From assembly GCA_000091205.1 (NCBI GenBank), contig AP006498.2: a DNA stretch of 64,000 nt; one strand, given 5' to 3'. The translations under genes and the position numbers were made by a program. Shown here one piece after another: positions 9,501 to 49,689 of this stretch. The notes under the pieces were generated by a model. That model did not search any database. It was not told the DNA's origin and saw only the letters and a program-made list of their open reading frames with translations. This DNA comes from Cyanidioschyzon merolae (Eukaryota). Within the stretch, counting starts at the first letter, position 1, and each line of letters begins with the position of its first letter.

Positions 9501-11505
9501 GTCTGGTTCTTCTTACAAGAGGTGAGCGTATCGAAGAAGACCTCCGCCTATCTACCTGCCTGTCTGCCAAACAAATATTGACGGAACCCAACCGCTTTCC
9601 AAACCAGGCGTGCCACAAGTCTAACAGTACTCTTCGGGCAAGTTTCCAGGTTTTGGCGCCACATCCTACGCGCTTCCGCAGGGTGCGTTTCATTCAATGC
9701 CGGTACACGGCTGCAGGCTTTCGTCGTACAGGCGGAGCTGCGTTCCCTTACTCCTCCACTTTGGAAACAACCTCTGCGTTATCAGAGAGAAAGGCTTGAA
9801 CTGCTGTGTCCTTGACGTTCATCGCGATGTTCGTTTATTTGCAGAGTTTCAGTTCTGCTCGCATGAGGCCAGTTGCAATATGCAAGGCACAATAGTGTCG
9901 GACTTGTACACTTTGTCGTTAATTATGCAGCACTGCAGGCAGGAACTCTCGCGAGAATAGTTAATGGGAGGGGGGTTGGAACTGTGAAGTGCCTCAACAC
10001 GGCATGTGCCGGTGACTCGGTTTGTCATGTTCTTCAGCAACCAGGTAGGCAGCCTCTGGGAGTCATTTTGTGCCGCTGCAAAAGAACCACCTTGCACCAG
10101 GGAAAACGTTCTTGTTTCCGTGAAACAAAAATAGGCGAATCTTAGGACAAAAGTAAAGATCGGTCTCTGTGATATAAAATCAGCCTCCGAGTTACCTGCG
10201 AGGAATGTGGAACTCGTGGAAAACAGCGGTCCTTTATGAGTGAAAGCCGTTGCATTCCACATGCAACGCTTTTCCGGTAGCGAATTCGGGTCCAGGTACC
10301 TCAATGTACATCATCGACTTGTAATTAATCAGACAGCGCTGTGGCGGCCACGTAGGATGGTAGATGCGTGCGCTCCTGTCCAGGCACGAAACTGTCAGCG
10401 CTCGCCTCTGTCTCCACGCCAGCTCACGGATGGTGCGATACCATGCTACGACTTGCATGAGATTCATGCACTGAAGAAGAGAAGCATGAGACAAGTCAAT
10501 TCGTAGTGGCATGCAGGCACAGACTCGTTCTATCACAAGCCAATGTTCCCTGTGCTGAAGCGTTCTTCAGGAGAATCAAAGTATGCCACCGCGCTACCCT
10601 GAGCGTTTTGGCTCCGTGCCTGTTCTGCCGCCTTCACCAAGCCGGGGCTCGAATCATTTCGATATCCTTCGGATGCTTGCTAGTGCGTTACGGGCATTTC
10701 CAGAGCACCGATGCGAAGCTGACTTCTGCTCCAGTGCCTCGGCATTGAAGTCTGTGCTCGCATGCGTTGACGAAGAATACACGGCGCGTTCGAAACTGAC
10801 GCGCCGTTTCCGGCCAATATCCCAGACGGACAGAGCTCTTCGCGGAGTCATTACTCTGGTGAACGCCACGCAACGCAGCTATCATGCGCCCGAAGACGGG
10901 ATTCGACCGTACCCAAGAGCGCCCCTGCCCAAGTGCGGCACACATCTCGTAAATGGATCCCATGTGATGGCCTCTTGTAGCGAAACTGCTACCGGATACG
11001 TTATCCGAGGCGAAACCTCGGCAAATGCCAAGATACACCGGCGTTTGCGACCAGTTCAACTGTCCCGGAGTGTGACTGCAAATCTTCGTAGAATATAGAG
11101 ATTCCCATCGCAACATATCTTTGTCTGGGCGGAAACGTTTGCAAAGTAGTTCTCCACGGAGCGACTCTTGGTGGGCGTTTCCCGCCACGGAGCGCAAACT
11201 GGCCCCTTGGGTGCGGCTTCCTGATGGCACTGTAGCTGCGCGACATGTGTGTGCGAACGAGTCGTTCCTGGGTACTATGATGTACGGAAACATGACAGTA
11301 ATGATTGCTTTCCCTGCATGGGGCCTCTTCGTGTTGTCGGCTCGCTTTCTGTGGCCCAGGGCTCTGCTAATTTGATGTCTGACGAAAATGGAAATCGTCC
11401 AATAAACTAACTCGGACGTACATGCGAAATTTTTGGATCTTTCCGCAGTCATCAACACCAGCCTTGGCGGATTCTCTGTGACTGCTTCCATTAGATTTCT
11501 CGTAG

Positions 11506-11965
11506 CTACGACTTTAAATACGCCGGTCGATCACCTCCCTCAAGATCTGTCGTCAGAGCTCGACGGATATTGATGCCAGCATTAAAGTCCCGATTTCGCC
11601 GTCTCAGGCTGGTGCCAACGCATGCCATGCCCAGGCAAAAGTTGCGATCTTCGCTTTGTCTGCCATCTCCATTTTCTCTCCAGAGCAGCATCGATACGCC
11701 CTTCGCAGCAGCGACTCTTGGTAATGGTCACGCTTTTCCTGTTTGTCCAATACGCTTCCTCCTCTGAGCGCCGCCCTGTGGCGCGTGAACGCTTGCCCCA
11801 ACGCTCACAGCACATGCACGTGCTGGGTACAGAACCATCCCGCAAGTGCCGTCCTCCATCCACGCGCCCGGTACCGTACCCTGTGATCGACAGCTTATTC
11901 CGGGTAAGTCTGCGGCAGGTGCTCTGCCCGCTGAACACGAAAGCGCACGCCACTCTATTCGACAA
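11506..11965 (-). pseudogene. TnpB/Fanzor-like C-terminal remnant (zinc ribbon plus RuvC-III), frameshifted
   Basis: SVPSTCMCCERWG resembles the TnpB motif pSSkTCsnCG. In a second frame, RNFCLGMACVGTSLRRRNRDFNAGINIRRAL resembles RtFtCpnCG...DRDvNAAiNI. The upstream ITGYGTG sits at the RuvC-II position without the Glu. Confidence 0.5.
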
Positions 11966-12160
11966 AGGATTTGTGGATCGCGATGTTGTTCACGATGAAA
12001 CAAGTTCCGGACGGGAAACCCGCAGCAGCCAGAAGACTGAGGAGCTTCGAACAATCCACGCTACACTGGTGCAACGCGGTGACGCACTCTGCGCTGGGGG
12101 CGAGCGCTGACGTCAGTGCGAGTCCAAGACACTTCTCCGTGCAAGCAGAAGCGCTGGAGC

Positions 12161-12220
12161 CTCCGAGAGCCTCCGAGAGCCTCCGAAAGCCTCCGAGAGC
12201 CTCCGAAAGCCTCCGAGAGC
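12161..12220. repeat. 10-bp tandem repeat (ctccga[g/a]agc) x6 inside R1 copy 1, with only x2 in copy 2 at 19996..20015
   Basis: Direct reading of the sequence. The 40-bp length difference is the only indel between the two near-identical copies. Confidence 0.9.
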
Positions 12221-12664
12221 ATACCCCCAAGAGAGATATCGTGCTGTTGTCGAACCCTATTTCGTGGATGGCCACACAGAGTAGAGAATAACTCCTTCGG
12301 ACGGAATAGATCGTTCGGCGTTCGCAGTCCAGTCCGGAATCGGCACAAGCTCGCGAAGGAGTCCTCAAGGGAAGGCGTCGAGTTTTTTGGTCGCCAGTCC
12401 ATCAGAGCAGATTCCTACGCGCTCGGGTAGCCTCGAAACCAGAGAACTCTAAAAATTGAAGAATGCGTCATTTGAGCATATTACTCGTAAGGAAGGAGTA
12501 TGAGTGGCGTCTTCTGCGTATGAATTGGATGATGGTATCGGTTATTTTACGAACCCTTTTACGGGGACGTCGCGAATGACCGTGACTCTGGGGATGAAAC
12601 GCAGTCCAGCGGGAACGAGTCGAAGGGGTCATTCCGGAAAGACCACCGATGATCCTGGAGTTAT

Positions 12665-14935
12665 ATGAAAATCCCAAACCGATTGCTGCACTTTGCATGC
12701 CGAGGACGTGCAGCTAAAAGAATTTCGGGAGAATTGCAAGGCAGGAAGAGAGCGAAGAGTTCAGTGTTTCATTTGAATCTGGCTCGGCTGTTGTGCACTC
12801 GTCCAGAGGAGGCACCGAAATGCCTCGGAGAACGCTCGCACTGCACTCATCTTAAGGGACTCGTGGCAATGGACTTCAAAGACTTGGTTGCTCTCCGTTG
12901 TGAACTTTCTGTGCAGAGTCTGACAGAAGTTTCGGCTGCACTCCGCCGCGTGATTCTGAGCAAGTCCTACTACGAGTATCAGGTAACTAGAGCGCCCCTG
13001 CGGAGTTTCCTCAACAACGGACCGCTATGGATTTTCCAGACTCTGAGCGGTGCAGGCAGCCTATGGGTATCAAACTTTTACGACACTTGCCGGGATCTCA
13101 TCGCGTCGGGAACGAGACCGGCAACAGGCACTTCCAGTTCTGCGGCGGGCGGCGCGCCAGCGAGGGCCTCACCGACCAGGGCGAGCGATAAAACAGAAAA
13201 GAAAAAGGCTCGGAGGCTGCTGGAGCTATGTCAGGCCGCACAGCCACCGGGGCTTCGCTCTTTGTGTGAACTAGAAAGGGCCCGATGCCAGGCTGCTGTG
13301 CATGCTCTCGGCCGTCTCGAGCGAGCCTTAGCAGTGTATCTTGGAAGGGCCCAGGAGGAGCTTTCTCGTCTACGAAGTTTAGTCGAGAAAGATCCTCAAA
13401 ATAGTTCTGAGTTGCGGGCACTCTTTCTCTCTTGCGACGAATTGCATCACCGTACACTAACAGCGCTGGAAGCAACCGATGTGGATGCTATCGAGGAGGC
13501 TGTTTACGCCCACTTGTTGGTCGATTCTGACGTTCTGGCTGATCTGGATCGCTGGGCTTCTATAATGAAAGAGGATGCAGAACGATTCATTACGCTCCTG
13601 CGCGATGTTCCGCGTAGATGGAACGTCTATTTGACTCTGGAAGAGCTCAGTCGCATCATGCCTGCGGCAGGACGTCAGTCCGGAAAGCGCCGCGGTCTGG
13701 GCTTCATCGAGCGATTGCAAAGGGTTTCGCTCATTTACCCATCGCACTTTGCGAGAAACTGGATACGCTACCTGTGCGGTACCCTGACCATCTTCTGGTC
13801 CTGGACGAAAATCAGCGCACATCGCGAGCATGTGATGCATATCGCACTGAGCGTACGTCAGGTTGTGAGAGGCTTCTGGGACGAGCGCATTATTACCCCG
13901 CTCACCATGATCTACAGGGAAATCTTTCAATCGTCGTATCGAACATTCATGGATCCGAAGGCGGTTCAGGCTGAGAAAGAGACCTTGAAGCGCATGGTTG
14001 TGGATTTTACCCGGGAGGCCTATGCGCGCCTCCCGGACGACCAGCGACAGGAAGCTGAACTTCTGGCTGCAAATGGTGATCTCACACCGGTCATGAAAGT
14101 CTACGAACGCCAGATTCGCAGCCCTGTGGTGAATATGCTTGCTGGTGACGTGATCAGAGCATTACTCATACAAGTCCAGAAACTCAAAGTTGATGTCGAG
14201 CAGGAGATGGTCGCTGTAGACTCCTTGGTTCGTTCGAACGAGCTCAATCTCCAGATCGCTGCTGCCGTTCCAGGCGTTCTTGGATGTTGCCTAGCGGTCG
14301 CGCTCCTGTACCGCTGGTTCAGGCGTTGGTGGTCGAGTATTCGCCTCACTGAAGTAGATCGTTTCGGAGGTGGCGGATATCTCTGGGCCAACGCCTTCGC
14401 CGAGAAGCTTCCCACCCGTGAGCGGGCCCGCCTCTTGCTACGAGATATCGAACGCTATCTGGTGTTGACGCTTTCGCTACGCGGCCCTGAAGCAGCTTCT
14501 GCGAGGCTTCAAGAGACGCCTCTGCTCCAGAAAGCACAAGTGCTCAACGGGAGAGCGCCGGCTTCGTTGGCGTCCGCTTCTCCGGAACGTGTGCAACGAG
14601 TATCAGATCGAACGCTCGCGACGTTCTTCCCTGGCGGTCTCGCTCAGGGTGAAACTGGCGAGAACCTCAAAAGCAGTGAAAATAGTGTGATTTTTCTCTC
14701 GACGGCTTGCATTGCTGAGTACGAAGACAAAGGACGTATTCTTCTCACCCTGGACGAACTGGAGGCCATGGTAACGAGCCGCGCTGGAGAGTTTGGGATC
14801 AGCCGCGGCTCTCAGCTGGAGACTCGCCTACGTGAAGATCTTTTGGACCTGAGATCATTCGCTCTCGACGCTGAACAAAAACTGCTCACAATCCTTCGAA
14901 TGCGCTCTACATATCCCTTTTTATGGGATCGCTAG
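12665..14935 (+). CDS. NCA2-like (nuclear control of ATPase 2 family) membrane protein; the first 39 codons come from the R1 repeat, so the true start may be ATG 12869
   Basis: A 756-aa uninterrupted ORF. VRGFWDERIITPLTMIYREIF and VDSLVRSNELNLQIAAAVPGVLGCCLAVALLYRWF (a TM segment) recall conserved NCA2-domain blocks (gFW.nWv.eP...I..ti; ksNELnF...vaP). This is recalled from memory and not verified. ATG at 12665 lies inside the repeat; the same start in copy 2 gives only the 71-aa ORF 20460..20675. Confidence 0.4.
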   Translation: MKIPNRLLHFACRGRAAKRISGELQGRKRAKSSVFHLNLARLLCTRPEEAPKCLGERSHCTHLKGLVAMDFKDLVALRCELSVQSLTEVSAALRRVILSKSYYEYQVTRAPLRSFLNNGPLWIFQTLSGAGSLWVSNFYDTCRDLIASGTRPATGTSSSAAGGAPARASPTRASDKTEKKKARRLLELCQAAQPPGLRSLCELERARCQAAVHALGRLERALAVYLGRAQEELSRLRSLVEKDPQNSSELRALFLSCDELHHRTLTALEATDVDAIEEAVYAHLLVDSDVLADLDRWASIMKEDAERFITLLRDVPRRWNVYLTLEELSRIMPAAGRQSGKRRGLGFIERLQRVSLIYPSHFARNWIRYLCGTLTIFWSWTKISAHREHVMHIALSVRQVVRGFWDERIITPLTMIYREIFQSSYRTFMDPKAVQAEKETLKRMVVDFTREAYARLPDDQRQEAELLAANGDLTPVMKVYERQIRSPVVNMLAGDVIRALLIQVQKLKVDVEQEMVAVDSLVRSNELNLQIAAAVPGVLGCCLAVALLYRWFRRWWSSIRLTEVDRFGGGGYLWANAFAEKLPTRERARLLLRDIERYLVLTLSLRGPEAASARLQETPLLQKAQVLNGRAPASLASASPERVQRVSDRTLATFFPGGLAQGETGENLKSSENSVIFLSTACIAEYEDKGRILLTLDELEAMVTSRAGEFGISRGSQLETRLREDLLDLRSFALDAEQKLLTILRMRSTYPFLWDR

Positions 14936-16112: not shown

Positions 16113-17235
16113 GCGATTGTTTCCGCTTCCTCTCTCCTGTCCACGCCATTCGGTACACTAGTCGCTACAGTTCCGTTATCAGCTGTTGGAAGATGTGGAT
16201 GGCAGTGACAAAGACCCGATTTCGCTCCTTCTCGCTGTTGTCGACGAATGCAGTGCAGAGGCGGCAGTTACAACCTGCGCTTCTGTTGCTATTTTCAATT
16301 TTTTTGTTTACAGCCTCGGTTCGCCCTTCGCAGCAGTGGTACTTGACTGCCGTCACGTGTTCTCGTACGTCCATCTCACTTTTACCTCGAGCACCGCCTT
16401 GTGGTGCGTGACGGTTGCTTCATCACTCAGAACATGCCGTGGGCTGGTACGGAGGACTCCCCATAATGTCCTTCTCCGTTTCCGCACCTGGTCCCGTACC
16501 TAACGATTACGGACTCCTTCTGGGCGGTACAAACGGCGAGTGCTCTGTTCCCTGCACATGCGAGCGCATCCTGTTCCATTCGATAGTTGATGTTTAGAAA
16601 GAGACGTTGTCCATAATGAACCGAGTGAAGGAAAAATATTTCAGGCCGGAGATCAAGTCGGGATACTTAGATCCGTCTACGCCCTCGGCATGGGAAACGG
16701 TGACTCACGCTCCACTGGAAGCGATCGCTGGAATGCCTCGATTCCCAGTCCAGGAACTTTTCCATGGAAACAGAAAAGACGGGAATCGCTGGATCCGCAA
16801 TCGGTGAGAGGTTCATGCTGCTGCCGAATCCTGTATTTCGGATAGCCTGAAAGAGAGAAGGATTTACCTTTCGAACAGAGTCGATCATTAAATGTGACAA
16901 GTTAAGCGAAATTTCAGCATGAACTTCTTAACAAGGCCCTGATGGACGTTGTCGAGTTTTTCTCTCGCCAATCTAGCTATGCGAAGGGTTGCGACAACAA
17001 AGTTGCCTTCAAACAGCAATATGGAAAACTTGAGGAACGCATGATTTGAGCATGGAACACCTAGTGACTTGGGAAGATTGGAGGCTTGCGCGTGTGAACT
17101 GGATAATGATATCGTCTATTTTACGACCCGCCGTTCGAAGGCGTTGCGAATCATCTTAATTCGTGTGAAGTTACGAATTCCAGCAGCAAATAGTCGAAGA
17201 CGCCATTCCGAAGACACAACCGAGAATTCTAAAAT
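16113..17235 (-). mobile_element. R1 element copy 3 (diverged, about 1.1 kb), same orientation as copies 1 and 2
   Basis: Plus-to-plus DNA homology to copy 1 over 11441..12650, for example aaagacccgatttcgctcc versus aaagtcccgatttcgccgtc. The end module 16900..17225 aligns with 12340..12650. The minus ORF 16165..16374 carries KYHCCEGRTEAV...CNCRLC...RNRVFVTAIHIFQQL in a single frame, matching the copy-1 pieces RCCEGRIDAA / CLGMAC / RNRDFNAGINIRRAL. It starts with TTTCCGCTT. Confidence 0.6.
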
Positions 17236-17406
17236 CTACATATGAACCAGTAAGTCCTCACAGCTGTACTTTAAAATGTCGATGCTTAACGTCTAAAAAC
17301 AAGTGCGAATAAAAGTCGAAGTGCAGGAACATTGCGAGTAGTCCAGCGTTCCATTTTTAATCTGACGCAGTTGTGGAGGGACAATGAATCCCGGAGCGAC
17401 TTTGCC

Positions 17407-19273: not shown

Positions 19274-20583
19274 CTTTCCGCAGTCATCAACACCAGCCTT
19301 GGCGGATTCTCTGTGACTGCTTCCATTAGATTTCTCGTAGCTACGACTTTAAATACGCCGGTCGATCACCTCCCTCAAGATCTGTCGTCAGAGCTCGACG
19401 GATATTGATGCCAGCATTAAAGTCCCGATTTCGCCGTCTCAGGCTGGTGCCAACGCATGCCATGCCCAGGCAAAAGTTGCGATCTTCGCTTTGTCTGCCA
19501 TCTCCATTTTCTCTCCAGAGCAGCATCGATACGCCCTTCGCAGCAGCGACTCTTGGTAATGGTCACGCTTTTCCTGTTTGTCCAATACGCTTCCTCCTCT
19601 GAGCGCCGCCCTGTGGCGCGTGAACGCTTGCCCCAACGCTCACAGCACATGCACGTGCTGGGTACAGAACCATCCCGCAAGTGCCGTCCTCCATCCACGC
19701 GCCCGGTACCGTACCCTGTGATCGACAGCTTATTCCGGGTAAGTCTGCGGCAGGTGCTCTGCCCGCTGAACACGAAAGCGCACGCCACTCTATTCGACAA
19801 AGGATTTGTGGATCGCGATGTTGTTCACGATGAAACAAGTTCCGGACGGGAAACCCGCAGCAGCCAGAAGACTGAGGAGCTTCGAACAATCCACGCTACA
19901 CTGGTGCAACGCGGTGACGCACTCTGCGCTGGGGGCGAGCGCTGACGTCAGTGCGAGTCCAAAACACTTCTCCGTGCAAGCAGAAGCGCTGGAGCCTCCG
20001 AGAGCCTCCGAGAGCATACCCCCAAGAGAGATATCGTGCTGTTGTCGAACCCTATTTCGTGGATGGCCACACAGAGTAGAGAATAACTCCTTCGGACGGA
20101 ATAGATCGTTCGGCGTTCGCAGTCCAGTCCGGAATCGGCACAAGCTCGCGAAGGAGTCCTCAAGGGAAGGCGTCGAGTTTTTTGGTCGCCAGTCCATCAG
20201 AGCAGATTCCTGCGCGCTCGGGTAGCCTCGAAACCAGAGAACTCTAAAAATTGAAGAATGCGTCATTTGAGCATATTACTCGTAAGGAAGGAGTATGAGT
20301 GGCGTCTTCTGCGTATGAATTGGATGATGGTATCGGTTATTTTACGAACCCTTTTACGGGGACGTCGCGAATGACCGTGACTCCGGGGATGAAACGCAGT
20401 CCAGCGGGAACGAGTCGAAGGGGTCATTCCGGAAAGACCACCGATGATCCTGGAGTTATATGAAAATCCCAAACCGATTGCTGCACTTTGCATGCCGAGG
20501 ACGTGCAGCTAAAAGAATTTCGGGAGAATTGCAAGGCAGGAAGAGAGCGAAGAGTTCAGTGTTTCGTTTCAGTCTGAAGGTTG
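19274..20583 (-). mobile_element. R1 element copy 2, near-identical to copy 1
   Basis: The six-frame ORFs are identical to those of copy 1 (for example the 61-aa MLLWRENGDGRQSEDRNFCLGMACVGTSLRRRNRDFNAGINIRRAL... and the 162-aa ORF). The only differences are the VNTR count and roughly 3 SNPs. It diverges from copy 1 immediately after ...agttcagtgtttc. Confidence 0.75.
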
Positions 20584-29307: not shown

Positions 29308-29949
29308 ATTGGGCCTGCTCAAGGCGTCTCAGAGCCAAGACGGCTGAGGCTGCTCCGCAGCGTGCGAGGAAAGCGTTCGTTGCAGTTGCACAGCCTTCAT
29401 GCGGCGACCGTCCAGCGACCGCCACCTCGAGATCTTCATCCGCGCGCAGTGCGTCCGACGCGAGCCTGGAGCAGCCGGACCTGTGGCGAAGTCCGACGAC
29501 GCTTGGCATAGCTGCACTTCCTGTCGTTCAACGCAATGCTGTTCCGTACCCGCTGCGTATCATTGAATGCTTATTCGATGTTTATAGCAAGAGATCGAGA
29601 TCGTTATGCAATGCACCCTACATACCGCAGACGGGTTGCCTGTATGGTACACTCTGTACTGAGGAGTGTACCGGGAACTGCATGCCTCCTTCAGGTCAGT
29701 CATACCGCATTACTTTGATGGCAGAGGAACGCTGAAAGAAATAACTAGATCTGCTCCGCGCCGAAAACTGGTATTGCCAAAGTATGTTTGCGGTCAATGG
29801 TACAAAAACAACCCGTTGATCTCTTGAGGGAAAGCAAAAGCTGTGATAGGAGCTGCTAGGACTGTCTCTGTTACTCAGTAGCTTGTTCGCTTGATCCTGA
29901 AAACACTGGGACACAGTCGCAAGAAAAGGCAATCTAATTCAGCACCATC

Positions 29950-30545
29950 TTGCACGGAAATCGCAACGAAAGCGTTCCTAGAACGTTGCGATCGGTATGA
30001 AGCTGAGCAACGCCCGTGTATTTCAGTCGATGTGGCTTGCTTCGGATGAAACGGTCGGAGCGTACATAAGTATTTGCTGGGCGGGAGCCCGGCGTATGTA
30101 CGATCCAACACGAAGAGAATGACGACATTATCATCTGTTCTAGGTACAGTGTATGCATATGGCGGCCTCAGTTTCGCTTATAAAGAAGGCTCATACATCA
30201 GGACCCTTTTCGTCGAATTATTCAAGATTTTCCTCCTCACGTCTGGCGGCGTCATTTTGTTGGACAACGTGGCGTTTCACCATTCCCCTTGCGTTCGAGC
30301 TTTTGCAGATGCGGTTGGGGTAGAACTGCTTTTCACTCCTTCGTACGCTCCTTGGTTAATCCCAGTCCAGGAGTGTTTTCTATCATGAAACGTAATGAGC
30401 GCTCCACTGGGCGTACTGATGAAGCGTTCAGCACACGGTGACACCAGGGCACATTTCGTCTTTCCTCCGCAAGTCCCTGTCTCTCCGGGAGGGTTTTCCC
30501 CTAAGGGCATAAAAAGGTGCGTTTATTTGAAGGAATAAAAAAATC
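29950..30545 (+). mobile_element. Tc1/mariner (IS630-superfamily) transposase relic B, 5'-truncated
   Basis: ORF 30074..30388 encodes ...GGVILLDNVAFHHSPCVRAFADAVGVELLFTPSYAPWLIPVQECF, which carries the second D and the E of the DD(34)E motif (DN..H ... Y.P.LNP.E). It is homologous to relics at 34550..35350 and 45840..46790, and the 3' tail is homologous to the low end of relic C. Confidence 0.7.
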
Positions 30546-30989
30546 CGAGGGAAAATTAAGGACATGAAAGTCGGGGATCCTGGCGAGCCGTCATCGCCAG
30601 CTGCCGGAAAACAACGAAAAACTCCTCCGCCCGCCCACCATCGAGCGAAGAAGGACAAGTGACAAAGAAGAAAACAGAAGTTTAGCTAGAAATGGTGTTT
30701 CCTCCAACAGAACAATGAATAGGCTGTTGTAGCATATACAGCATGAGTTCTGGGAGTCCTTCCAAAGGTGAATTCTATCAGAGGCAATAAACGCATGGAG
30801 TACGTGAAGCGAGACTTTACGCTGCTACCAACATCATACGCTATGTGGTGCTGTATACGAGACTACAGGAGCTTAGGCGATATGAGTTTGTAAGGCAGCC
30901 TCTCAGGGACTTGGTGCAAAGAGAAAAACTGAAGCCAATGGCAGGAGGGCGGCCAAAAAGGCTGCGAGGCGTCTTCGGGTGGGTGTCAA

Positions 30990-31650
30990 TTTGCCAAGGA
31001 TAGCAAGAACAGAAACTAAACACTTACTAGCTGCCCGATAACGATTTCTTCCCGCCTCTACAGTAAGCGTTGAAAGGGAGGGAAGGGTTCCGTATATTCG
31101 AAAGTTTACCTTCTAGGCGGAAGATCCCCCGACCCGGACGAGTCTGCCGGGCTTACGCTCCGTTTGAATCTGCAGTGACGAAAGCTGTGATGAAGTTTGA
31201 GCAGCTCGTCCGAAATGCAAGTTATCCTGGGACTCGGAGCTGATATGCTGCCTCTGGATGTCGCCCTGGTCGCAGTGGACTCCTAGTATATCGCTTCGCG
31301 TTGCCGCAGGCAGTATGTCTGTCTGTACAGTTTCCAGGCTCCCAGAATGATAATGAATCCCAACCTGTGTCGGATGAACCACGCCTCGGTCCGACGCCTC
31401 AGCAGTATGGCAAAGCCGCTCTATCTCCGTTCTGCATCGGCATCAGCGGTATGGGCGCTTTCGCTGGAGCCCAGAGCAGGTACTCGGCACGCGACAGAAT
31501 GTATGAAGCGACCAGTGTGTCCAAGAAGAAGTATCGGTTATGGAACTTGGAGTTAAGGTGCCGCGTGATGGACGCTTTCCCGAAAGCCAAGACCCATCCG
31601 GCAATCTGGAATCCATAGTCTATGTAAATATTCTGTCAAAGAAAAAAGAT
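30990..31650 (+). repeat. R2 dispersed repeat copy 1 (about 650 bp, no recognisable coding capacity)
   Basis: Homologous to 33880..34575 in the same orientation, for example gcgttgaaagggagggaagggttccgtatattcgaaagttt versus gcgttgaaagggaaaagtgtttcccttattttagaaagttt. Both ends match: ...gatggacgctttcc... and aaagaacagaaacta. Confidence 0.7.
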
Positions 31651-33879: not shown

Positions 33880-34575
33880 CAACCTACGAGCTACAATTGC
33901 GCTAAAAGAACAGAAACTATCCAATAACCAGCAACTCTATAACAATTTCGTTTCATCTTCACGGCACGCGTTGAAAGGGAAAAGTGTTTCCCTTATTTTA
34001 GAAAGTTTGTCTTCAAGCCGGAAGGTCCCGCGAGACGGACGAGTGTTCCGGGCTTGCACTCCGTGCGCCTCTACAGTGGCGGTCGCAGTGCCGAGACCTG
34101 AACGGCTCATCTGGAATGCGTTTTATTCTGGGAATAAGGGTGGCAAGGGTGTATCCAGGTATCGCCCTGGTGGAAGTGGTCTCCTAGCACAGCTCTTTCG
34201 CGCTGCCGCATGCAGTAGGTCTGTCTGCGCAGATTGCATGCTCCAAAATGATTCTATGATCCGATTCCGTATCGGGTGCACCACGCCTTGGGCCGACGCC
34301 CTCTGTGCCATGACAAAGCCGTTTTGTCTCCGTGCTGTATCCGTACCATCCATGTAGGCGTTATTGTGGGTGCTCACGGCAGGCTCGGCGCGCGGTAGAA
34401 CGCACGTAACGACCAGTACACCCGAGAGGAAATATGGGTGATGAAACTTGAAGGTGGAGCGCAGCATGATGGACGCTTTCCACAATGCCACAACTCATCC
34501 CGCAATTTAGTGACCATGGCCATCTAAAACGATTTCTCAAACAAAAAGGTTCGCATAATGGAGCGATCATTACGT
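33880..34575 (+). repeat. R2 dispersed repeat copy 2
   Basis: See copy 1. It lies about 200 bp upstream of the RPL10A start codon and abuts the truncated 3' tail of Tc1-like relic A. Confidence 0.7.
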
Positions 34576-35350
34576 TACACTATGAAAAACACTCGTTCTT
34601 TGGGGTTCAGCTATGGGCATTACGGAGGAATGAAAAGTAGCTCTACCCCCGATAGAATCCGCAAAAGCTCGAACGCAACGGAAATCGTGAAATGCCAGGT
34701 TGTCCAGTAGAAGCACATCAGCAGATGTGAGGGAAAAGTCTCCAATGATTGGATCATGTGGGTGCTATTTCATGAGCCTTCTCTGCGAGAGAATCCGAGG
34801 CCGCCAAATATATCCACTGCAGCTAGAACAGATGATGAAATCTTTCTCTTGGAGTTCGATCTTATATACAACTGGCGCCTTCTATGCGAATACCCATATA
34901 CAATCCGACCGTTTCGTCCGAACGGAGTCTTACCGACTAAGTAAACGGACCGACGTGCCTGTGCTTCCCAGCGATCGAGACGTCCCAGTAACTCTGTCGT
35001 TGCGATATCGGTGGAAGATGGTGGTGCATGAAACTCAACTTTTTTGCGACTGTATCCCTGTGTATTCAGGACCACACGAACAAGCTGCTGAGTACCAGAC
35101 ACGCCCGTGGTCGCTACCATCGTACGGTTTGATTTCTCTAAAGTGATCAACATATCGTTTTCTACCATTGACCGCAAGCACGCTTCGAGAATATCGGTTA
35201 CTGGCTCGGAGCGCATACACGTTTTTCTTTCAGTTTTCCTCAAACATTTGCGCACTGTGGTATGGCTTACTTGAAGGGGCAAGGCAGTCCTCCTTGCACT
35301 CTTCAACAGAGCATATATCCTATAGGTAATTCGCCTACGATCTAAATGTT
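34550..35350 (-). mobile_element. Tc1/mariner (IS630-superfamily) transposase relic A, degenerate
   Basis: The minus ORF 34770..35306 has an HTH (LQVSHTTVRKCLRK) followed by SVYLVGKTPFGRN (first D of the DDE motif mutated to G) and YIRSNSKRKISSSVLAAVDIFGGLGF. A further reading below 34770 gives ...VLLLDNLAFH.... It is homologous to relics B and C, and the 5' flank 35150..35350 matches 46600..46790. Confidence 0.7.
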
Positions 35351-35607
35351 ACATTCATTAGAGATTTCTGTCTCCTTCTCCACCCCGCAACGATGGTGAA
35401 CCAAAATTGAGTTGAAAGATTACAAGCGACGGCCGTTCCGTGGCCGCAGCTGCTGTGTCCGAATTTACCAAGATCGAGAGCCGTTACGCTTCTGTGCCTG
35501 GCCCTGAGCTCAAACAGCTACGTTTACGTACATACGTTGCAGTGGGTTATGTGAGCACAACTTTAGGCGTCTTACTTTTTCTCACTAGCGCACCAGGATT
35601 TTTCCTA

Positions 35608-38279: not shown

Positions 38280-38760
38280 CTTTCGTCAACTCATTTCGAG
38301 CACAGGCGGCAGATGCGATCTTCGTTTCGCTCGCCATTTTCGTCTTCTGTGTATACAGCCACGATGTACCTTTGGTAGCACAGAAACTGCACCGCGGTCA
38401 ATTGTCCTCATATTAAAAACATCTCTTTTTCCGAGGGCCGCACTGTACAGCGTAAAAGCTTGCTTCATTTCTTGGTACACACTTTTCACGGGTTCAGAAG
38501 GTTCTTCTCGATGCCATCCGCCGTTTCCGCACCCGGTGCCGTATGCTATGATCACGAACTTCTCGCGCGCGATGCGCTCAGCGAGTAGCCTGTCCGCTGC
38601 ACGCGCATATAGACGCTTCCCGTTGGAGAACTCGCCATACCTTTCCTTGCACCCACTTCGTTTTCTGCAAACTCTACAACCCAACGTAACGTTGAGCGTT
38701 GCGGGCATCGATGTGCCTTGGCCACTTGCAGGCATCGTGTCCACACGTTCCACTCACACA
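38280..38760 (-). mobile_element. R1/F-family fragment (copy 5), same orientation as the others
   Basis: DNA such as ccatccgccgtttccgcacccggtgccgtatgctatgatcacgaactt matches ccatccacgcgcccggtaccgtaccctgtgatcgacagctt in copy 1. The minus ORF 38286..38753 carries KFVIIAYGTGCGNGGWH, compared with copy 1 ITGYGTGRVDGG and the long element KILVVAHGAARW. Confidence 0.5.
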
Positions 38761-40649: not shown

Positions 40650-41340
40650 AAGTTGTAATGTATACGATGATAAATGCTTTGTTCACTGGCGTCTACCAAA
40701 GAGAAGAGGGTTGGTGGAACGTGATGTTGTCCGTGATGAAACAAGTACCGGGAGGAAAATACAACCAGGAGAATAAGTCGACCAATCTGGATTCGTCAAC
40801 GCACTCTTCATGTCCAGCGGTGGCGCAATCTCTACCGAAAATGATCGCCACTATAGCTTAAGTCCGATCCCAAGTCAACTGTCCATGCAAACAGAAGAGA
40901 TGGGAGCCTCCCGGAGTAAATATTTTGAGCGGCATCATCATGCAGAGGAGTGGTGTTGCATCGATGGAAGCGAAGAAGGGATCATTTTTATCAGAGCGAA
41001 ACCCATTATTTGGCGTGACAAGTTCAGTGTGCTTTCGGCATGAGCTTGTGAAGGAGTCTTCAAGCGACGGCGTCGCGTTTTTCTCGTCGCCATTCCAGCG
41101 GCGCGAATCGCTGCGCTCTCGAGTTGCCATCAAAGAAAAAACCAACAGCTTGAAGAACGCTTGATTTGAGCAAGCAACTCGTAAGGAGAGAAGCAGCGTG
41201 GTAGCTGGACCGTATGAACTGGGTGCTGATATGGATTAGTATACAAACCCTCTTTCCAGTCTGTGGCGATTCATCTTGATTCCAGTGGCTTGAGGAATTC
41301 CAGCGTCAACGCCTCAAAGGAGCCAGTTCGAAGCGACGAT
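40650..41340 (-). mobile_element. R1-family fragment (copy 4), containing the conserved end module
   Basis: gaacgtgatgttgtccgtgatgaaacaagtaccgggagg matches gatcgcgatgttgttcacgatgaaacaagttccggacgg in copy 1. Peptide echoes are MLSVMKQVPGGK versus MLFTMKQVPDGK, and KNATPSLEDSFTSSCRKHTELVTPNN versus KNSTPSLEDSFASLCRFRTGLRTPND. The module 41150..41340 aligns with 12460..12650. It lies in the divergent promoter region between the 39549..40619 gene and the DHQS-like gene. Confidence 0.6.
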
Positions 41341-41623
41341 CGATTAGCCAAAATCTACGTGCAAAACCTTTAGCGGTAAATACGGCACTTAAATGCCTTG
41401 GCTGCACAGCTAAAAAAGTTCAGAAAAAATCGAAAGGCAGAACTTAGCGATTAGTTCATCTTTACCTGCCGCGGCGGCTAGATCCGGGATGGTACGCTCG
41501 GTAAGATCTTGCTGCAGATTCCAAACTAGGTAGTGGTCAGCACAGCGTTTCAACGTGCTCGACGAACAGACGAATCTGCAAAAAAACCCTGACGTCGTAC
41601 GCATAGGGCCGAGGTGTTGGTCT

Positions 41624-43511: not shown

Positions 43512-43721
43512 ACGATGTGCGCAGAACACGAAATAACGAAATCGTCGCCGCAAAAATCGTGAGCGGCGAACGCGTTTTGCAACAGCGCCATTTGTATTTG
43601 CGGCCAGAGTCAATGGTACGAAAAACGTTTCGCAATCATTGGATAAATGAATAGCCACCTAAAGACTCATCCCAGTCTTTCTCGACCGGCCACCCACAAC
43701 TGGATTCAACTTCTTTCCGAG

Positions 43722-45800
43722 CAATTCCGCCTTGAGAGGTTGCCCCGTAAAGTTGGCTCTCGTCAACTCTGAGGATCTCGTCTCGAGCACAGCACATCTT
43801 CTGATATTAATAGCAGCGTAAATGTCATGGTTCATGAACTTTATTCCATTCTTTCAGTTCGTTGTACTCACCAGTGCGAGCAGTCTTCGAAAATGTGCCC
43901 CTCTTTCCGTTTGCTGTTCTGTCAGCGCTCCGTACTTTTCTACATCCTCAGGGCTTCGCTGGCACTTTTCCATCTCGACCCTCTGAAGCGTGCACCCCAG
44001 CTCATAGTGCATACAGGACGTTTGGAAATCATCTACCAGTATTGTGACAAAACGGTGTGTACATTTCTTGTACGCTCTCGTCGATGGAGCAGGTGTGCCT
44101 TTTTTGGACGCCCATCGCGCCGCTCCGTGTGCTACTACGAGAATTTTTCTCGTGTCCGCCTTGAGGGCGCTCAGCTGATTGATGAAGTTGGCGAATGCAC
44201 GCTGTTTCCCATAGTACAGGCTCATACGCGTACGAGCGCACCAGAGCCCTGTGTACTCTTTTCACAGCTCCTCGTTATGAGCAGCGCCAACTTTCATGAA
44301 TTCCTGAAAAGCTTCAAAGTTCTCTACGCGGCTCGGCAGCTGGCTGATCGCTTCCAGATGCTCCTTCACTCCTGCGTTCCATGTCTCAGTTTTCTTCCTC
44401 TCATTCATTATTCCCGATTCTCGGCAATATATCGCTCTCGAGAACTTTAAAAGACGCATGTCTTTTTGACGTAAGTTTGAGTCAGTGCCATCTTCCGCAC
44501 ACTTGGGTGCTGTGATGGCCATGATATTCGTCTTCCCAGTGTCAAGGCCAACGACAAAGTCGTTATCCTGCACTTTCTGTGTCGCAGGATCCGCCTCCTT
44601 CTCATCTTCCTGCTTCGTCACGGGCGATCTCGCAGATGGGCCACGATGATCTGCCTTCAACCTTCGACAGTGTACACATAGGGCTACTCCATCGGTCTCG
44701 ATGATGCCTGCGAGTGCCTTCTGCCTACTCGTTTTGAGACATTTAAAATCGAAGATATTCTTCCAGTACGTCTCCCGGTTTTCGCCGGTGAACTCTGTCA
44801 CCCTTACATCGAACTCCGGACAGATCTCCTTCGTGATGCCGAAAAGGGATGTGGAGTCGATTGTCACAAAACGCCACTTGATCTTACGGAACAGAACGAC
44901 GTTGAAGCGCGTCCCCATTACGACAGCCCTCCGTCGCTCCTGCTCTTCGCTTCCGCCCTCACTCAGCTTCATCTCCACCTTGCGTTCGAGTTCACGGTCC
45001 AAAAATACAAAATAGCGCAGGATGAGGGGATAACACTTTTTCTTATCTTTTTTCGTAGCTGATACCTTTTCTGCTGCATTCGCTAGCCGCAAGACTGCAC
45101 GGTGCTCTTGAACAGCCGCAGAGATCACAGAAGCTCCATTCTTTCTCCTGCGTGATGTCTTCTTGTGGACGAAATCTATCTCCTGTTAATATTGGATATC
45201 GTCCGTGATGCTTTCGACAATGATCCATCTCTCTTTCCGAGAGAGGCCCGGGTACAGTGCAAGCGTGGCGCGTATCATGAAGATTTTGAGTTTCATGGTC
45301 AGATTGTTCTTCAGCTTCGTGAGATACTTCGTCGCCCGTAGGTGCAAATATCCCCGTCACCCCCGTATCGAGTACCGTTGAAAAGGCACTCGGGGTGATT
45401 TTCTTGTAGGACGTGTACTCAATCAATTCTGCTCGACGCTTCCCGTGTGCCAAGCATCAGGCGGAGAATGAAGGTCATGTTGAAAAATTCTTCCGGTACC
45501 TCTACTGTTTTGATGTCCGCCACGTCGTGATGCATCTCCCTCACCATATGCCTCAGTTCTAAAGAAGTGTTTCGGACACTGCTGGAGTACGAGGCGACTC
45601 GGTTTCTGATTGCCTCTTGGACTTTTTGCTCGTACGAACTCTTGATGTGTCCGAGAAGAGACGCTTTCCCTACCATCTCGTCATACTGTCGTCTTCCGTG
45701 CAGCTTTTGATGTCTGACCTCCCTTTTCTGCTCCTTCATCTTCCCCTATTCCTCCGGGCTTGGCACTGTTTTTCGTTTTTTCCGGCAGCCGGCGACACCG
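43722..45800 (-). mobile_element. F element (about 2.1 kb): the longest TnpB/Fanzor-like element in the window and a relative of R1
   Basis: The low-coordinate terminus cttcTTTCCGAGCaattccgccttgagagg is homologous to the R1 terminus ctTTCCGCAGtcatcaacaccagccttggcgg. It encodes the minus-strand TnpB-like ORFs at 43854..45739. Its high end abuts Tc1-like relic C. Confidence 0.55.
43854..45739 (-). pseudogene. TnpB/Fanzor-like (OrfB_IS605 RuvC-fold) protein gene with one in-frame TGA (44262..44264) and upstream frameshifts
   Basis: ORFs 44262..45128 and 43854..44225 share a frame, separated by TGA plus 12 sense codons. DNDFVVGLDTGKTNIMAITAP matches the RuvC-I motif vGIDlGiknlA. KILVVAHGAARW lies at the RuvC-II position with the Glu replaced. 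FVTILVDDFQTSCMHYELGC matches V.p.yTSQ.C..CG. The RuvC-III DxNAAxNI block is missing here but present in R1 copies as RDFNAGINI. The upstream ORFs 45043..45453 and 45419..45739 are in other frames. Confidence 0.5.
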
Positions 45801-45839
45801 TCCCTCCAGGATCCTCAGCCTCCGCGTCCATAACTTGTT

Positions 45840-46790
45840 CTTGCGTTTTTTTTATTTTTGACAATTAACGCGCTTGTTTATGCCGTTAGGTGAGGACCTG
45901 TACGGCGGGGGAAATATTAGCGGGAGAACGACGACATGCGCCCCTATGTCAACGTGTTCTGAACGTTTCGGCGATCCTTCCACTGGATCGATCGTTACTT
46001 TTCCGGATAGAAGAAACTCCATCGATGGGGTTCAAACACGGACACTTCGAAGGAATAAAAAAGCAACGTTAGCCCGATAGAATTGGCAAAAGCTCGAACA
46101 CAAATGGAATGGTATTTACCATTTCGTCCAAGGGAAGGAGGTCACCACACGTCAGGAAAAAAGTTTCAATGATTCGAAAAAGTGGGCGCTGTTGTTTGAG
46201 CCTTCACTATGAGCGATACTGAGACCGCCAAACGAGTCCATCGCAGCTAGAACAGATGATGTCGGAGTTCTCTTTGAGTTCGACCCTGCATACAACAGGC
46301 TCCCTCTCCGCGAATACCCATGTACGCTCCGACGGTTCTGCCCGAGGGGAGTCTCATCGACTAAAAAATAAATCGACACACCTGTGCTTCTTACCTATCG
46401 CACGGTTTCAGGAAAGCTGTAGTCGCGATTCCTGTGGAAGATGGCGATGCCTGAAGCTGAACTTTTTTGCGACTGTATCTTAGTGTTTCCAAGACAATAT
46501 CAACAAGCTGCTGATAAACAGAGACGCCCGTGGCGACTAGTGTCGTCGCGTTTTGCTTTCCTTGAGGCGAGCAACGGGTCATTTTTATACGACTGACCGC
46601 AAACACGCTTTGACAATTCCAGGCTTTGGTGCGGAGCACACATACTTGTTTCTTTTAGTGTTCTTGAACGATCAGAGTATTGTGGTATGACTGACCCGAA
46701 AGAGGAATGCCGTCCTCGTTGCACTCTTCAGTAAAGAATGCATCCTACATTCAATTCGTCTACTATCTGTACGGCACATTTCGTAATGAT
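45840..46790 (-). mobile_element. Tc1/mariner (IS630-superfamily) transposase relic C, degenerate
   Basis: The minus ORFs carry an HTH (RVSHTTIL), then ATGVSVYQQLVDIVLETLRYSRKKVQLQASPSSTGIATT, then SIYFLVDETPLGQNRRSVHGYSRRGSLLYAGSNSKRTPTSSVLAAMDSFGGLSIAHSEGS (first D of DDE within FLVDET). It is homologous to relics A and B. The antisense ORF MPLGEDLYGGG... mirrors 30277..30510. Confidence 0.7.
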
Positions 46791-47479
46791 TTTGATCTCC
46801 TGCTCTGCGCTCGAAAAAGCATTCGATTGCACTTAGCGACATGGGAGCGAAACTGAATTGGAAGAATTTAAGTTTTTGACCACATCGTCTGAATCCAAAC
46901 CCATCGGGTTGAAAACGGTAAGAAAAAGCATTTGTCTGTGGTGTGGGAAATGAGCAGCGGGCGCATCCGCAGCAGTGATGTACCTCGTTCAGGAAAGGTT
47001 TTCCGGCATTCTCTCCTGCACTGCGGGCTCCAGCTTCCAACTCAAAGGGGCAAATTTCGGCGTTTTTTCCCACGTTGTGTTCATTTCTAGACCAGACACT
47101 GAACAACTGAGATAAGGCAAATTTTCTAAATGGTACGTTTGGATTTGTGACAACCAAGATGTACCAGGCTTTTGGCGGCCTGGTTGCCAAACGCTGCTTT
47201 CCACTGCGAATCAATGGTAATTTTCTCGGCAGTATCACCTAAAGCAAAGATCATCTTCGTTCGCCAATTGCTCAGAAAAATCTCTCTCGGTGCGTTCATC
47301 CGGCGCTCAAGACTCGCTGGACAGCTGAACATTACATTACCGGTGCCTTGCTAGGGTCGACAAGAAAATACCCTCTGTTCTGGCTGCTTACGTTCTCATC
47401 GGAAGTCTCCGTGGTTCGGTACATTGCCCACGTTGAGTACTAATTGATGCTCTGAGAAGTTCGCTCGACACTCCGGAAG

Positions 47480-48020
47480 CACGAGATATTCCAGGATGCT
47501 TATCAAAGGGCGTTGAAGGCTCAGTGCAGAACTTGCTCCCGCACATGCACACTGGTGAAATCACACTGTAACAAGCCGCTCACCTCCGATTGCATCCCCA
47601 TTTGAAGTTCGATCATCTTACCGCACACAATCCCTTGCATCCGGGTCAGTTTCACGCTGGAATTCTCTAACGGGTTTGGCGAGAACCCGTGCTCGAGATG
47701 CACGGATGTTTTCCCAAACCTTCCATTCATATCGCGCATAATCGTTACTACACTAAATGTACGCCCTTGTGGATGGAGCAGAGGTGCAGCACATGCGTGC
47801 TATATTACGTCCAGCGCCATTGGCTATCATAGAAAGACGTGACTTATCGGTCATTTCCGTTCCCAACTCATTGAACAAGTTCGTTATTGCATGCCTCTTG
47901 CCTTTATAAATCAGAAACCGTTGACAACCCGAGCGTGTCTCGTGTGCTTCTACCAAAGGTCGTCTGCATGAGTCATTGGGATGCTGGTGCACTCTCTGAC
48001 TGAGGCGAACAACGCATCGC
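47480..48020 (-). mobile_element. F-family fragment (copy 6), same orientation
   Basis: The minus ORF 47753..48022 has GKRHAITNLFNELGTEMTDKSRLSMIANGAGRNIARMCCTSAPSTRAYI, compared with the F element GKQRAFANFINQLSALKADTRKILVVAHGAARWASKKGTPAPSTRAYKK. ORF 47521..47739 has LQCDFTSVHV, compared with LVDDFQTSCMHY. Confidence 0.5.
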
Positions 48021-49206
48021 ACTTTGCTCGATTCAGTGCTCAGAGTCTAGGGATCGGTCCTTGTGTTGTCATAACGCTTCTTGACCTGCATCCTGGCATC
48101 CATTGTGCCGGACTTACCATGAGATCGAGCCATGGAAAAGCTGTGAAGCTCCATCCGGTTTCCGGTCAAATATTCGTCACTACCGCCTTGTTCTAGTGGT
48201 ATAGCGGCGGGCATCATATCCTTGGAGCCAGGATCCACGCCCCTCACGAAATCTTTCTTTCTTCATGGAACTTGAAGGAGTGAAAATGAGAGCCGTTGCA
48301 TCACTCAGGCCTAGTTATCAAGAAGTGTATGCAGATGAATATTCTGTTGGTCTCCGTGGTCCTCGAAAAACTCTTTCCACTTTGTTCCTATATAAAGCAG
48401 GGTCCTTGAACGAGCTTTACCTATTCTTATTGCTAGGTTGTTCGAGTGCTTTGAAGTTTTATGCTTAGGCGAACCATGGCATATAGAGAACCGCCCATAG
48501 TACACTGTGCTAATTCCTACAAAGATATGATTGGGCTGTCAAGCGACGTATGAGACCATGTCGAATAGACGCGTGAGGATTCGAGGGTGGATTCTGCTTT
48601 GTTGTCCTTGGTTTCCTGGAGGAAAACGTGGGAACGAAAGATGCACGCAAGGCAGGTGTTATGTTTGATGAATTCTTAAGACAAGCCCTCTGTGGGTATG
48701 AGGGCTGAAATAACAGCATGAGCTTGCTCGATCCGAAGTGATACGCGCCCCCGCTGAGGTATACCTTCCGGTACTACTAGCTCGTGATTGTCCTCTAACG
48801 ACTTCCCTGTATCCCATCCATTCGTGCCCTCCTTTCTGGGCCGGTACTCTGAGGCTACAACGCCGAGAGGTACGCCTTACGAAGCGCTCGAGATTAACCC
48901 GCAAATAGCTTTTGAGGTTTATTGATACTTTTTGGCAACTACGCCGTAGATATTCCAAAACCCGACTGAGCATTGCTGGGCGTCAAGGTGTTCTGGAGAC
49001 CCTGTTTGCAAATCCCTTATGCTACGTTCCAACCGTCTTGCATCGTCTGTCCCGAGCATCAGTTCATTTCTATTGGGAGTTTTGATCAAAAAAATAGGTA
49101 GCCATGTGGACAGCCTGCAGACTTGTTTGCGGAACTCGGATGTTCAGCTGCGTGATGGAGTGCGTCAAGACGAAACACGCTAACCGAGCATTGCTCGAGT
49201 AAGTAG

Positions 49207-49689
49207 CTACACGCTCACGGATAGCTTGCTGCACCTTACCTTTTGGAAGATTGCCTCCGCGCATGTGTTTAGGTATCTAGCCTTGACAAGGCGTTCAGAC
49301 AGACAAATCCCCCGCTGATTGATCTCTTTCCTGCCCTTCCTCGTCCCCTTTTCGGGAGGACACCTCTCTTCATTGTCCATGGTTTTTTCCTCCTTCTTCG
49401 TCTTCACCCTCTTGTTGCGGTATGCGGTGGCATAGATATGGGAGCTGAAAGCCATATTCGCTCGTTTTTCCTCGGGACCTGAATGCACTAGGTGGATACT
49501 GGGGCCGAAGCTCATATTTTTTGAATGAATATAATGTTGTTCGAGTGCTTTTTCGTGGCCATCTCCGTCATGAGCACGCCCAAGGACTGAAGCGCGTCTA
49601 TACGCACTCTCCCTCGCAAAAGCATAAAAGCAACAGATCGATACAGGGCTGGTAAGGGTAGAGAACAATTCGGTGATGAACGGGCTCAT
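49207..49689 (-). CDS. hypothetical small protein (160 aa) containing an internal short duplication
   Basis: ATG confirmed at 49689. A partial tandem duplication at 49440..49530 (gctgaaagccatattcgctcg / gccgaagctcatattttttga) lies in the coding sequence. No recognisable domain, so it may be spurious. Confidence 0.2.
   Translation of the reverse strand: MSPFITELFSTLTSPVSICCFYAFARESAYRRASVLGRAHDGDGHEKALEQHYIHSKNMSFGPSIHLVHSGPEEKRANMAFSSHIYATAYRNKRVKTKKEEKTMDNEERCPPEKGTRKGRKEINQRGICLSERLVKARYLNTCAEAIFQKVRCSKLSVSV

Follow-up and report, generated by a model that had tools for sequence, protein, structure and literature searches.

The F element and the CMe-1 family

The 64,000-nucleotide stretch analysed here (the window; contig AP006498.2 of assembly GCA_000091205.1) is nuclear DNA from chromosome 16 of Cyanidioschyzon merolae 10D, and its central feature is a repeat that we call F, on the minus strand at 43600..46827 (the 3' limit is approximate). 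F is a full-length, decayed copy of the Fanzor1 transposon CMe-1. Its Fanzor1 pseudogene, delimited by tblastn with the published consensus, occupies 43659..45831 on the minus strand and corresponds to residues 1-729 of the CMe-1 protein. The CMe-1 consensus protein (734 amino acids, aa) and the CMe-1A consensus DNA (3169 bp) were taken from the supplementary files of PMC3627910. When the window was searched with the protein, 45831..43653 matched residues 1-729 at 66-71% identity (expect value, E, of 0) as three high-scoring segment pairs (HSPs) in three frames, and blastn aligned bases 869-3082 of the CMe-1A consensus with 45875..43663 at 81% identity. Because both the protein and the DNA align to the published consensus, F is a genomic copy of the known CMe-1 family. 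An earlier reading of the bare sequence (the original prediction) had proposed a degenerate repeat family of TnpB/Fanzor-type RuvC genes at this locus, and the roughly 70% identity to the CMe-1 consensus, together with the profile and fold matches described below, bears this out. The gene proposed for F is likewise real, but it is longer than had been claimed, running from 45831 to 43659 within an element that extends to about 46827.

The CMe-1 Fanzor1 family of C. merolae has been known since 2013, when the paper that named the Fanzors listed this species among the Fanzor1 hosts (Bao & Jurka 2013, Mobile DNA 4:12, PMC3627910). According to the same paper, CMe-1A numbers about 150 copies, which individually share about 80% identity with the consensus of about 3 kb, CMe-1 elements have no terminal inverted repeats (TIRs) and no detectable target-site duplications (TSDs), the 5' 635 bp of CMe-1A is a second repeat named TE-N2_CMe, and some CMe-1 copies are still intact. 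The original prediction knew of no such genes described in red algae, a view that does not hold, since CMe-1A of C. merolae is described in PMC3627910 and Rhodophyta appear in PMC10530073. Our overall reading, to which we assign a probability of about 0.93, is that the window holds a dead CMe-1 Fanzor1 copy plus related relics, whose mostly common orientation arose by local accident or local duplication and is no property of the family.

The gene of F is extensively damaged. It contains five internal stops (TAG at 45746-45748, TGA at 45419-45421, TAA at 45186-45188, TGA at 44262-44264 and TGA at 43854-43856) and two frameshifts (near 45769-45781 and at 45335). From 45335 to 43653 the minus strand is one frame broken by stops, and the two shifts of frame lie further upstream. 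Of 23 family positions that are invariant or nearly so, eight are replaced in F, compared to none of the 23 in the CMe-1 consensus. With these stops, frameshifts and replacements, including a change of the relocated catalytic Glu to Asp, F cannot work. It is inactive because it is a broken pseudogene and not because it has been domesticated.

Fanzor1 membership and the active site

We used sequence profiles combined with fold comparison to place the family. Profile A1, which consists of the CMe-1 consensus and five metagenomic homologues, had a single match in the PDB, namely the Fanzor1 protein of Spizellomyces punctatus (SpuFz1, 8GKH; E 2e-5), and this alignment pairs the DPG motif, the glutamate of (V/L)DE(F/Y)xTS and the RD motif of the two sides. 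An exhaustive profile search collected 3935 representatives at E<=1e-3, so that the CMe-1 branch has thousands of database representatives, and 36 sequences from this search were used for alignment and profile A3. Only Fanzor1 proteins of Parasitella (8e-25), Spizellomyces (1.5e-18) and Guillardia (5e-14) were matched by A3 in the PDB, and the pieces of F were matched with E between 2.5e-60 and 5.5e-9. The Pfam family PF07282 (Cas12f1-like TNB, formerly OrfB_Zn_ribbon) was matched by 9 of the 36 A3 members. Word-indexed protein searches with the consensus or with A1 returned close Cyanidiales relatives only. Many close CMe-1 homologues (P0042-P0123) carry the precomputed Pfam label PF26935.1.

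The fold was examined on P0081, an intact relative that shares 43% identity with the CMe-1 consensus. Its AlphaFold model has a predicted local distance difference test score (pLDDT) of 85.8 and a predicted template-modelling score (pTM) of 0.83. The top seven PDB matches of this model in Foldseek are all Fanzor1 structures (PpFz, SpuFz and GtFz; E 4e-18 to 2e-14, template-modelling (TM) scores 0.5-0.7), and Cas12 proteins and Fanzor2 come next with far weaker scores. By sequence profile and by modelled fold (WED/REC plus a RuvC lobe), the CMe-1 family is therefore assigned to Fanzor1. Two of the checks that had been proposed earlier can be judged from these results: structure prediction, applied to P0081, did bring Fanzor1 structures to the top, and profile comparison succeeded with the family profile and the fold, although Pfam on single open reading frames (ORFs) failed.

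The motifs quoted for F in the original prediction are all present on the minus strand at the places where they had been reported. The RuvC-I motif GLDTGKTN (44526..44549) keeps the catalytic Asp, with the Fanzor DPG altered to DTG. The family profile aligns it to VVVIDPNKRDI of SpuFz1, and DPG itself is invariant in 35 of the 36 family members and present in the CMe-1 consensus. The canonical RuvC-II position (VVAHGAARW, 44112..44138) holds Gly, as in every family member, and the alternative-Glu motif VDDFQTS (44016..44036), which reads VDEFRTS in the family, has Glu changed to Asp and Arg to Gln. In the RuvC-III motif NHDIYAAINI (43803..43832; NRDFNAAINI in the family, where NRDxNAAxNI is conserved throughout), the Asp is kept, Arg is replaced by His and Asn by Tyr. 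In alignment A3, D422-P423-G424, G560, E593 and R661-D662 are invariant or nearly so, and both the Gly of the canonical RuvC-II position (AYG, G560) and the Glu found 33 residues downstream (E593, VDEFRT) are strictly invariant. The family alignment thus has the DPG Asp, the rearranged RuvC-II and the RuvC-III RD of Fanzor1, and F is altered at several of these. In all Fanzors the canonical RuvC-II Glu is replaced by Gly or Pro, and cleavage requires the alternative Glu, which lies about 45 residues downstream and six before the zinc finger (PMC10530073, PMC10711439). The active site of the intact relatives is made up of the DPG Asp (RuvC-I), the relocated Glu in VDEFRTS and the NRD Asp (RuvC-III), with Gly at the old RuvC-II position.

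Two other interpretations of F compete with that of a dead transposon copy. F might be a functioning gene in which splicing or readthrough overcomes the apparent stops, as the 1.5-kb stretch 45185-43662 keeps one frame in which two of the stops are in-frame TGA codons (at 44262 and 43854), and a GTGAGT...AG stretch, its GTGAGT following codon 43860, spans the second of them. However, the stops of F comprise all three types (TAG, TAA and TGA), the two frameshifts lie upstream of the single-frame stretch, and the residues on either side of the stops are colinear with the consensus, the TGA at 44262 standing for a conserved Trp codon. This colinearity identifies the stops as point mutations and not as introns. 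Furthermore, the eight replaced invariant positions argue against a live gene, and so does the absence of the longest piece of F (a 288-aa ORF at 44262-45128) from a protein collection that holds the neighbouring C. merolae genes. A functioning gene is in our assessment extremely improbable. Just as little weight can be given to the proposal, made in the original prediction, that the family is a domesticated TnpB, nuclease-dead through loss of the RuvC-II Glu and acting as an RNA-guided regulator in the manner of TldR. Its starting point is correct: no copy deviates from Gly or Ala-Gly at the canonical RuvC-II position (VVAHG, ITGYG and IIAYG). But the Gly and the alternative E593 are invariant together across the active-type family, exactly the relocation that is documented for all Fanzors, so that Ala or Gly at this position is the family norm and no evidence for a dead derivative. 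Moreover, the window copies are relics of a multicopy transposon, with stops and frameshifts, and not single conserved host genes.

Related repeats in the window

Further CMe-1 relatives surround F. One of them, on the plus strand at 29562..30974, is a non-autonomous CMe-1 derivative with an internal deletion, in which a 5' module is followed by the beginning of the ORF and then by its final ~190 bp. Consensus bases 868-970 are found by blastn at 30514..30622 and bases 2889-3082 at 30783..30974, both on the plus strand, and tblastn also detects this copy (E 8e-6). The same 5' non-coding module, of about 950 bp, makes up 45876..46827 of F (minus strand). It is not the CMe-1A 5' end (TE-N2_CMe), and blastn shows 70% identity to 29562-30622 (inverted) and to 34559-35380; in the plus-strand copy the module proper occupies 29562-30513. 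The latter, on the minus strand (34559..35380), is a further copy of this subfamily module, aligned at 70% identity with 45984-46805 in the same orientation. The module is found again in eight metagenome loci (L015, L024, L051, L055, L057, L061, L066 and L080), where it usually adjoins a 250-350-bp 3' fragment of the Fanzor ORF. This combination of 5' module and ORF 3' fragment is a non-autonomous derivative, formed by deletion, that recurs among these loci and resembles the plus-strand copy. F also ends in an alternative 3' tail (~65 nt, ~43600-43662), which it has in common with the plus-strand copy and the same metagenome loci. A 3' truncation of F was considered and ruled out, as the sequence beyond consensus base 3082 is a recurrent alternative terminus. 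Two TE-N2_CMe-like repeats, which equal the 5' 635 bp of CMe-1A, lie on the minus strand at 31005..31638 (blastn to consensus 4-635, 81%) and 33905..34539 (consensus 4-636, 77%).

A second Fanzor1 pseudogene, F2, lies on the minus strand at 47509..49414. It is near full-length, much more diverged than F and of another sublineage; tblastn matched it to residues 19-661 of protein P0082 (E 5.9e-33) and to P0081 (E 1.6e-26), and its profile matches are co-linear. For weaker relics, profiles A1 and A3 were run against all six-frame fragments of the window, with 30 locally shuffled, composition-matched windows as control. In the repeat R1a (11439..12781, minus strand), the part 11512-11941 probably derives from a Fanzor1 C-terminus (ITGYGTGR ... 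RNRDFNAGINIRR), and the RuvC-III end of R1a and R1b was matched by A3 with 14.4 bits (E 1.5e-3; 11512-11595 in R1a). R1a also gave two co-linear HSPs with P0082 (E 0.009) and 61% identity to P0081 over 28 aa (E 0.004), and both R1a and R1b have a weaker RuvC-II match to P0082 that is co-linear with the one at RuvC-III. R1b (19274..20576, minus strand) is 96.6% identical to R1a. A diverged R1 copy, R1c (16192..17239, minus strand), shares 68% DNA identity with R1 by blastn, and its own profile matches (E 4-8) are not significant. A further probable Fanzor1 relic, from the RuvC-II region (FVIIAYGTGCGNGG...), is a profile match at 38448..38642 on the minus strand (A3 13.7 bits, E 2.4e-3; A1 E 0.033). 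At 41015..41358 (minus strand) lies R1-related DNA, matched by blastn to 12340-12560 and 16894-17239 and lacking Fanzor similarity; neither profile gave a Fanzor signal near 40650 or in 41015-41358 among the six-frame fragments. Of the seven copies or fragments in the original prediction, F (E=0) and the one placed at 47480 (F2, 47509-49414) therefore stand, R1a, R1b and the one at 38280 are probable (14.4 and 13.7 bits), R1c is tied to the family only by its 68% DNA identity, and the one at 40650 is not supported.

The 96.6% identity of R1a and R1b extends over 1343 bp, although they are 7.8 kb apart and have unrelated flanks. The other window repeats share 66-81%, which suggests that the R1a/R1b pair arose by duplication or was evened out by gene conversion not long ago. 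Over its upstream two-thirds (11941-12781), R1 shows no similarity to Fanzor or CMe-1A, yet this part is itself repeated (16894-17239, 41015-41358), and R1 may be a composite element with only a Fanzor 3' remnant.

The Fanzor origin of the R1 repeats and the 38448 fragment, and the meaning of their orientation, can both be read differently. These repeats could be unrelated to Fanzor1 and resemble NRDFNAAINI and AYGxG by chance, given that the matches cover just 24-63 profile positions, at E of about 1e-3, that the remainder of R1 is without Fanzor similarity, and that a protein search with the frame-joined conceptual peptide of R1 found nothing. Against this, none of the 30 shuffled windows reached 10 bits (best score 8.7), compared to the 14.4 and 13.7 bits observed, and because their scores exceed the best of the shuffled windows we regard R1a, R1b and 38448 as probable relics. 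In addition, the two HSPs of R1 to P0082 are in the correct order on the same strand, and these matches sit among proven CMe-1 relics, which makes a chance likeness unlikely. As for orientation, the original prediction had all copies on one strand and took this to recall the strand bias of IS200/IS605 elements, which would imply strand-specific insertion through single-stranded DNA or coupled to replication. The minus sense does prevail, in 6 of the 7 coding relics and in 10 of the 11 family-related segments of the window, and the lack of TIRs and of detectable TSDs in CMe-1 (PMC3627910) would fit such insertion. But the plus-strand copy at 29562-30974 had been missed, and for independent coding relics the two-sided binomial p is ~0.13; p becomes higher still if R1a and R1b, being 96.6% identical and thus not independent, are counted once, and adjacent modules likewise belong together. 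We also took a census of 80 CMe-1 loci on metagenome contigs of related Cyanidiales, comparing copies within 10 kb of each other after the removal of five duplicate loci. Neighbouring copies were on the same strand in 12 of the 24 pairs and on opposite strands in the other 12. Random orientation is the result that the original prediction had set as its refutation, found here in relatives and not in the C. merolae genome. The strand-biased insertion of IS200/IS605-type elements is thus not seen among CMe-1 copies, and Fanzors are in any case tied phylogenetically to IS607-type TnpBs and not to IS200/605 (PMC10711439). Strand-specific insertion is consequently highly unlikely.

Outside these repeats, the window contains annotated C. 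merolae genes. The ORFs at 6229-7464 (the phycocyanin-associated rod linker, a nuclear phycobilisome rod-linker gene), 54078-61298 (CMP188C) and 36624-37769 (CMP182C) match annotated C. merolae 10D proteins exactly, and the large ORFs of the window include eukaryotic domains (ankyrin/armadillo, NIF phosphatase and NCA2). Rfam and tRNA scans of the window were both without any match. A 252-aa ORF on the minus strand (42900-43658) begins directly at the 3' limit of F and overlaps the tail of the element with its N-terminal part. Its C-terminal half resembles, by eye, a glyoxalase/VOC-type domain, and the real gene within it probably starts further downstream. The AT skew (-0.208) and GC skew (-0.105) at 44001-46000 are the strongest in the window and fit the purine-rich sense strand of the Fanzor ORF on the minus strand. 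Short direct or tandem repeats of 72-78% identity at 14941-15131 and 53449-53607, found by self-comparison of the window, are unrelated to the Fanzor family.

Assessment and comparison with known systems

Several results weigh against the reading of the window as a dead CMe-1 Fanzor1 copy with related relics. The Pfam scan of single ORFs and of a 419-aa read-through translation had no relevant match, and phmmer of the same translation against the PDB found nothing. The reason is that single decayed sequences are too divergent and profiles are needed, which means that the family placement of F rests on profiles and on the published consensus. The C4 zinc ribbon, which lies between the alternative Glu and RuvC-III and is part of the 2013 definition of the Fanzor motifs (PMC3627910), is absent as well: F and the CMe-1 consensus contain no CxxC, nor do 32 of the 36 sampled clade members, in which DPG and the catalytic Glu and Asp are kept, so that F and most of the clade lack the OrfB_Zn_ribbon feature of Fanzor1. 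We read this as a secondary loss within Fanzor1 and not as grounds for exclusion, since the defining paper itself names CMe-1 as Fanzor1 and the homology and fold are unambiguous. Text searches of two Fanzor papers found no discussion of such an absence. Moreover, bases 1-868 and 3083-3169 of the CMe-1A consensus are unmatched in F and replaced by other recurrent sequence, and F does not show the ~80% identity over the whole 3169-bp consensus, including the 5' 635 bp, that marks CMe-1A in the strict sense. Because the CMe-1A termini are replaced, F belongs, as a full-length element, to a sister subfamily of CMe-1A. Two candidate hairpins near CMe-1A-type 3' ends show no covariation beyond controls. 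Lastly, the orientation census covers metagenome relatives within 10 kb and not the C. merolae genome, and the Fanzor origin of R1 and 38448 depends on short matches with E of about 1e-3.

CMe-1 is a multicopy element with one gene, which encodes Fanzor1, a eukaryotic homologue of the bacterial RNA-guided nuclease TnpB; the 3.2-kb element showed no second ORF. By homology with characterised Fanzor1 enzymes (8GKH; PMC10530073), intact CMe-1 proteins would bind a guide RNA from the 3' end of the element and cut matching DNA. Established here are the homology, the fold, the conserved Asp/Glu/Asp triad of intact relatives, the setting in a multicopy transposon and the decayed state of the copies in the window. 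The 46 CMe-1A-type copies compared have a conserved sequence at the 3' terminus, RNAalifold predicted no consensus structure on the 3' ends, and the window has no Rfam match for an omega RNA. Compensatory changes in the 3' hairpins were considered as a signal and dropped for want of covariation beyond controls. In these 46 copies (loci L002-L080) the similarity runs ~13 nt beyond the published end of the consensus (GAAAGRCG then TTTGTTnnnnnTG), and the true CMe-1A 3' terminus may be longer, or the elements may have a target-site preference.

As a locus, this is a textbook decayed Fanzor1 copy, lying in the very genome from which the family was first recorded, in 2013, and its discovery value is little. 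Its value is mainly corrective: a "missing" RuvC-II Glu is normal, red-algal Fanzors are on record, and co-orientation does not characterise the family. Curators of transposons may find some use in the subfamily that has alternative termini, in its deleted derivatives and in the lack of the zinc ribbon across the clade. A more far-reaching view, which we consider doubtful, is that the CMe-1 lineage belongs to a large Fanzor1 branch which is without the C4 zinc ribbon, has kept its active site and retains intact ORFs of ~700 aa in hot-spring Cyanidiales. If this were true and the proteins active, they would be zinc-ribbon-less RNA-guided nucleases of thermoacidophilic eukaryotes, in elements that would exchange their terminal modules, 5' as well as 3', from one subfamily to another; all this bears on the relatives and not on the dead window copy.

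Compared with known systems, the likeness to TldR is superficial and limited to the absence of the canonical RuvC-II Glu. TldR proteins act as host regulators, are intact and conserved, and have lost catalytic residues, whereas the triad is conserved in CMe-1 and the window copies are broken, F being no intact ORF of the TldR kind. TnpB (IS200/IS605 and IS607, e.g., ISDra2) and Cas12f are distant homologues with the same RuvC fold, and in Foldseek the P0081 model matched Cas12o/Cas12f with E of 1e-4 to 1e-2 and Fanzor2 with 3e-3. They differ in having the canonical RuvC-II Glu, a length of ~400 aa, a zinc ribbon and a TnpA partner, whereas CMe-1 proteins have ~730 aa and a relocated Glu, and their element showed no gene for a transposase. 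The Fanzor1 nucleases SpuFz1 (8GKH), PpFz of Parasitella parasitica (9CF0) and GtFz of Guillardia theta (9CER), the sole PDB matches of the family profile, are much closer. With them the family shares the whole fold (TM 0.5-0.7 for P0081), the DPG Asp, the RuvC-II Gly, the alternative Glu in (V/L)DE(F/Y)xTS and the RuvC-III Asp, but their identity to the CMe-1 clade is only 13-15%, and SpuFz1 keeps a CxxC...CxxC zinc ribbon that the clade does not have. The nearest known system is CMe-1/CMe-1A itself (PMC3627910). F differs from CMe-1A in its other ~950-bp 5' module and ~65-nt 3' tail, and it is a pseudogene while some published copies are intact. The species and the gene are nevertheless the same, TE-N2_CMe-like pieces lie near F in the window, and its decay is at the level reported for the ~150 published copies.

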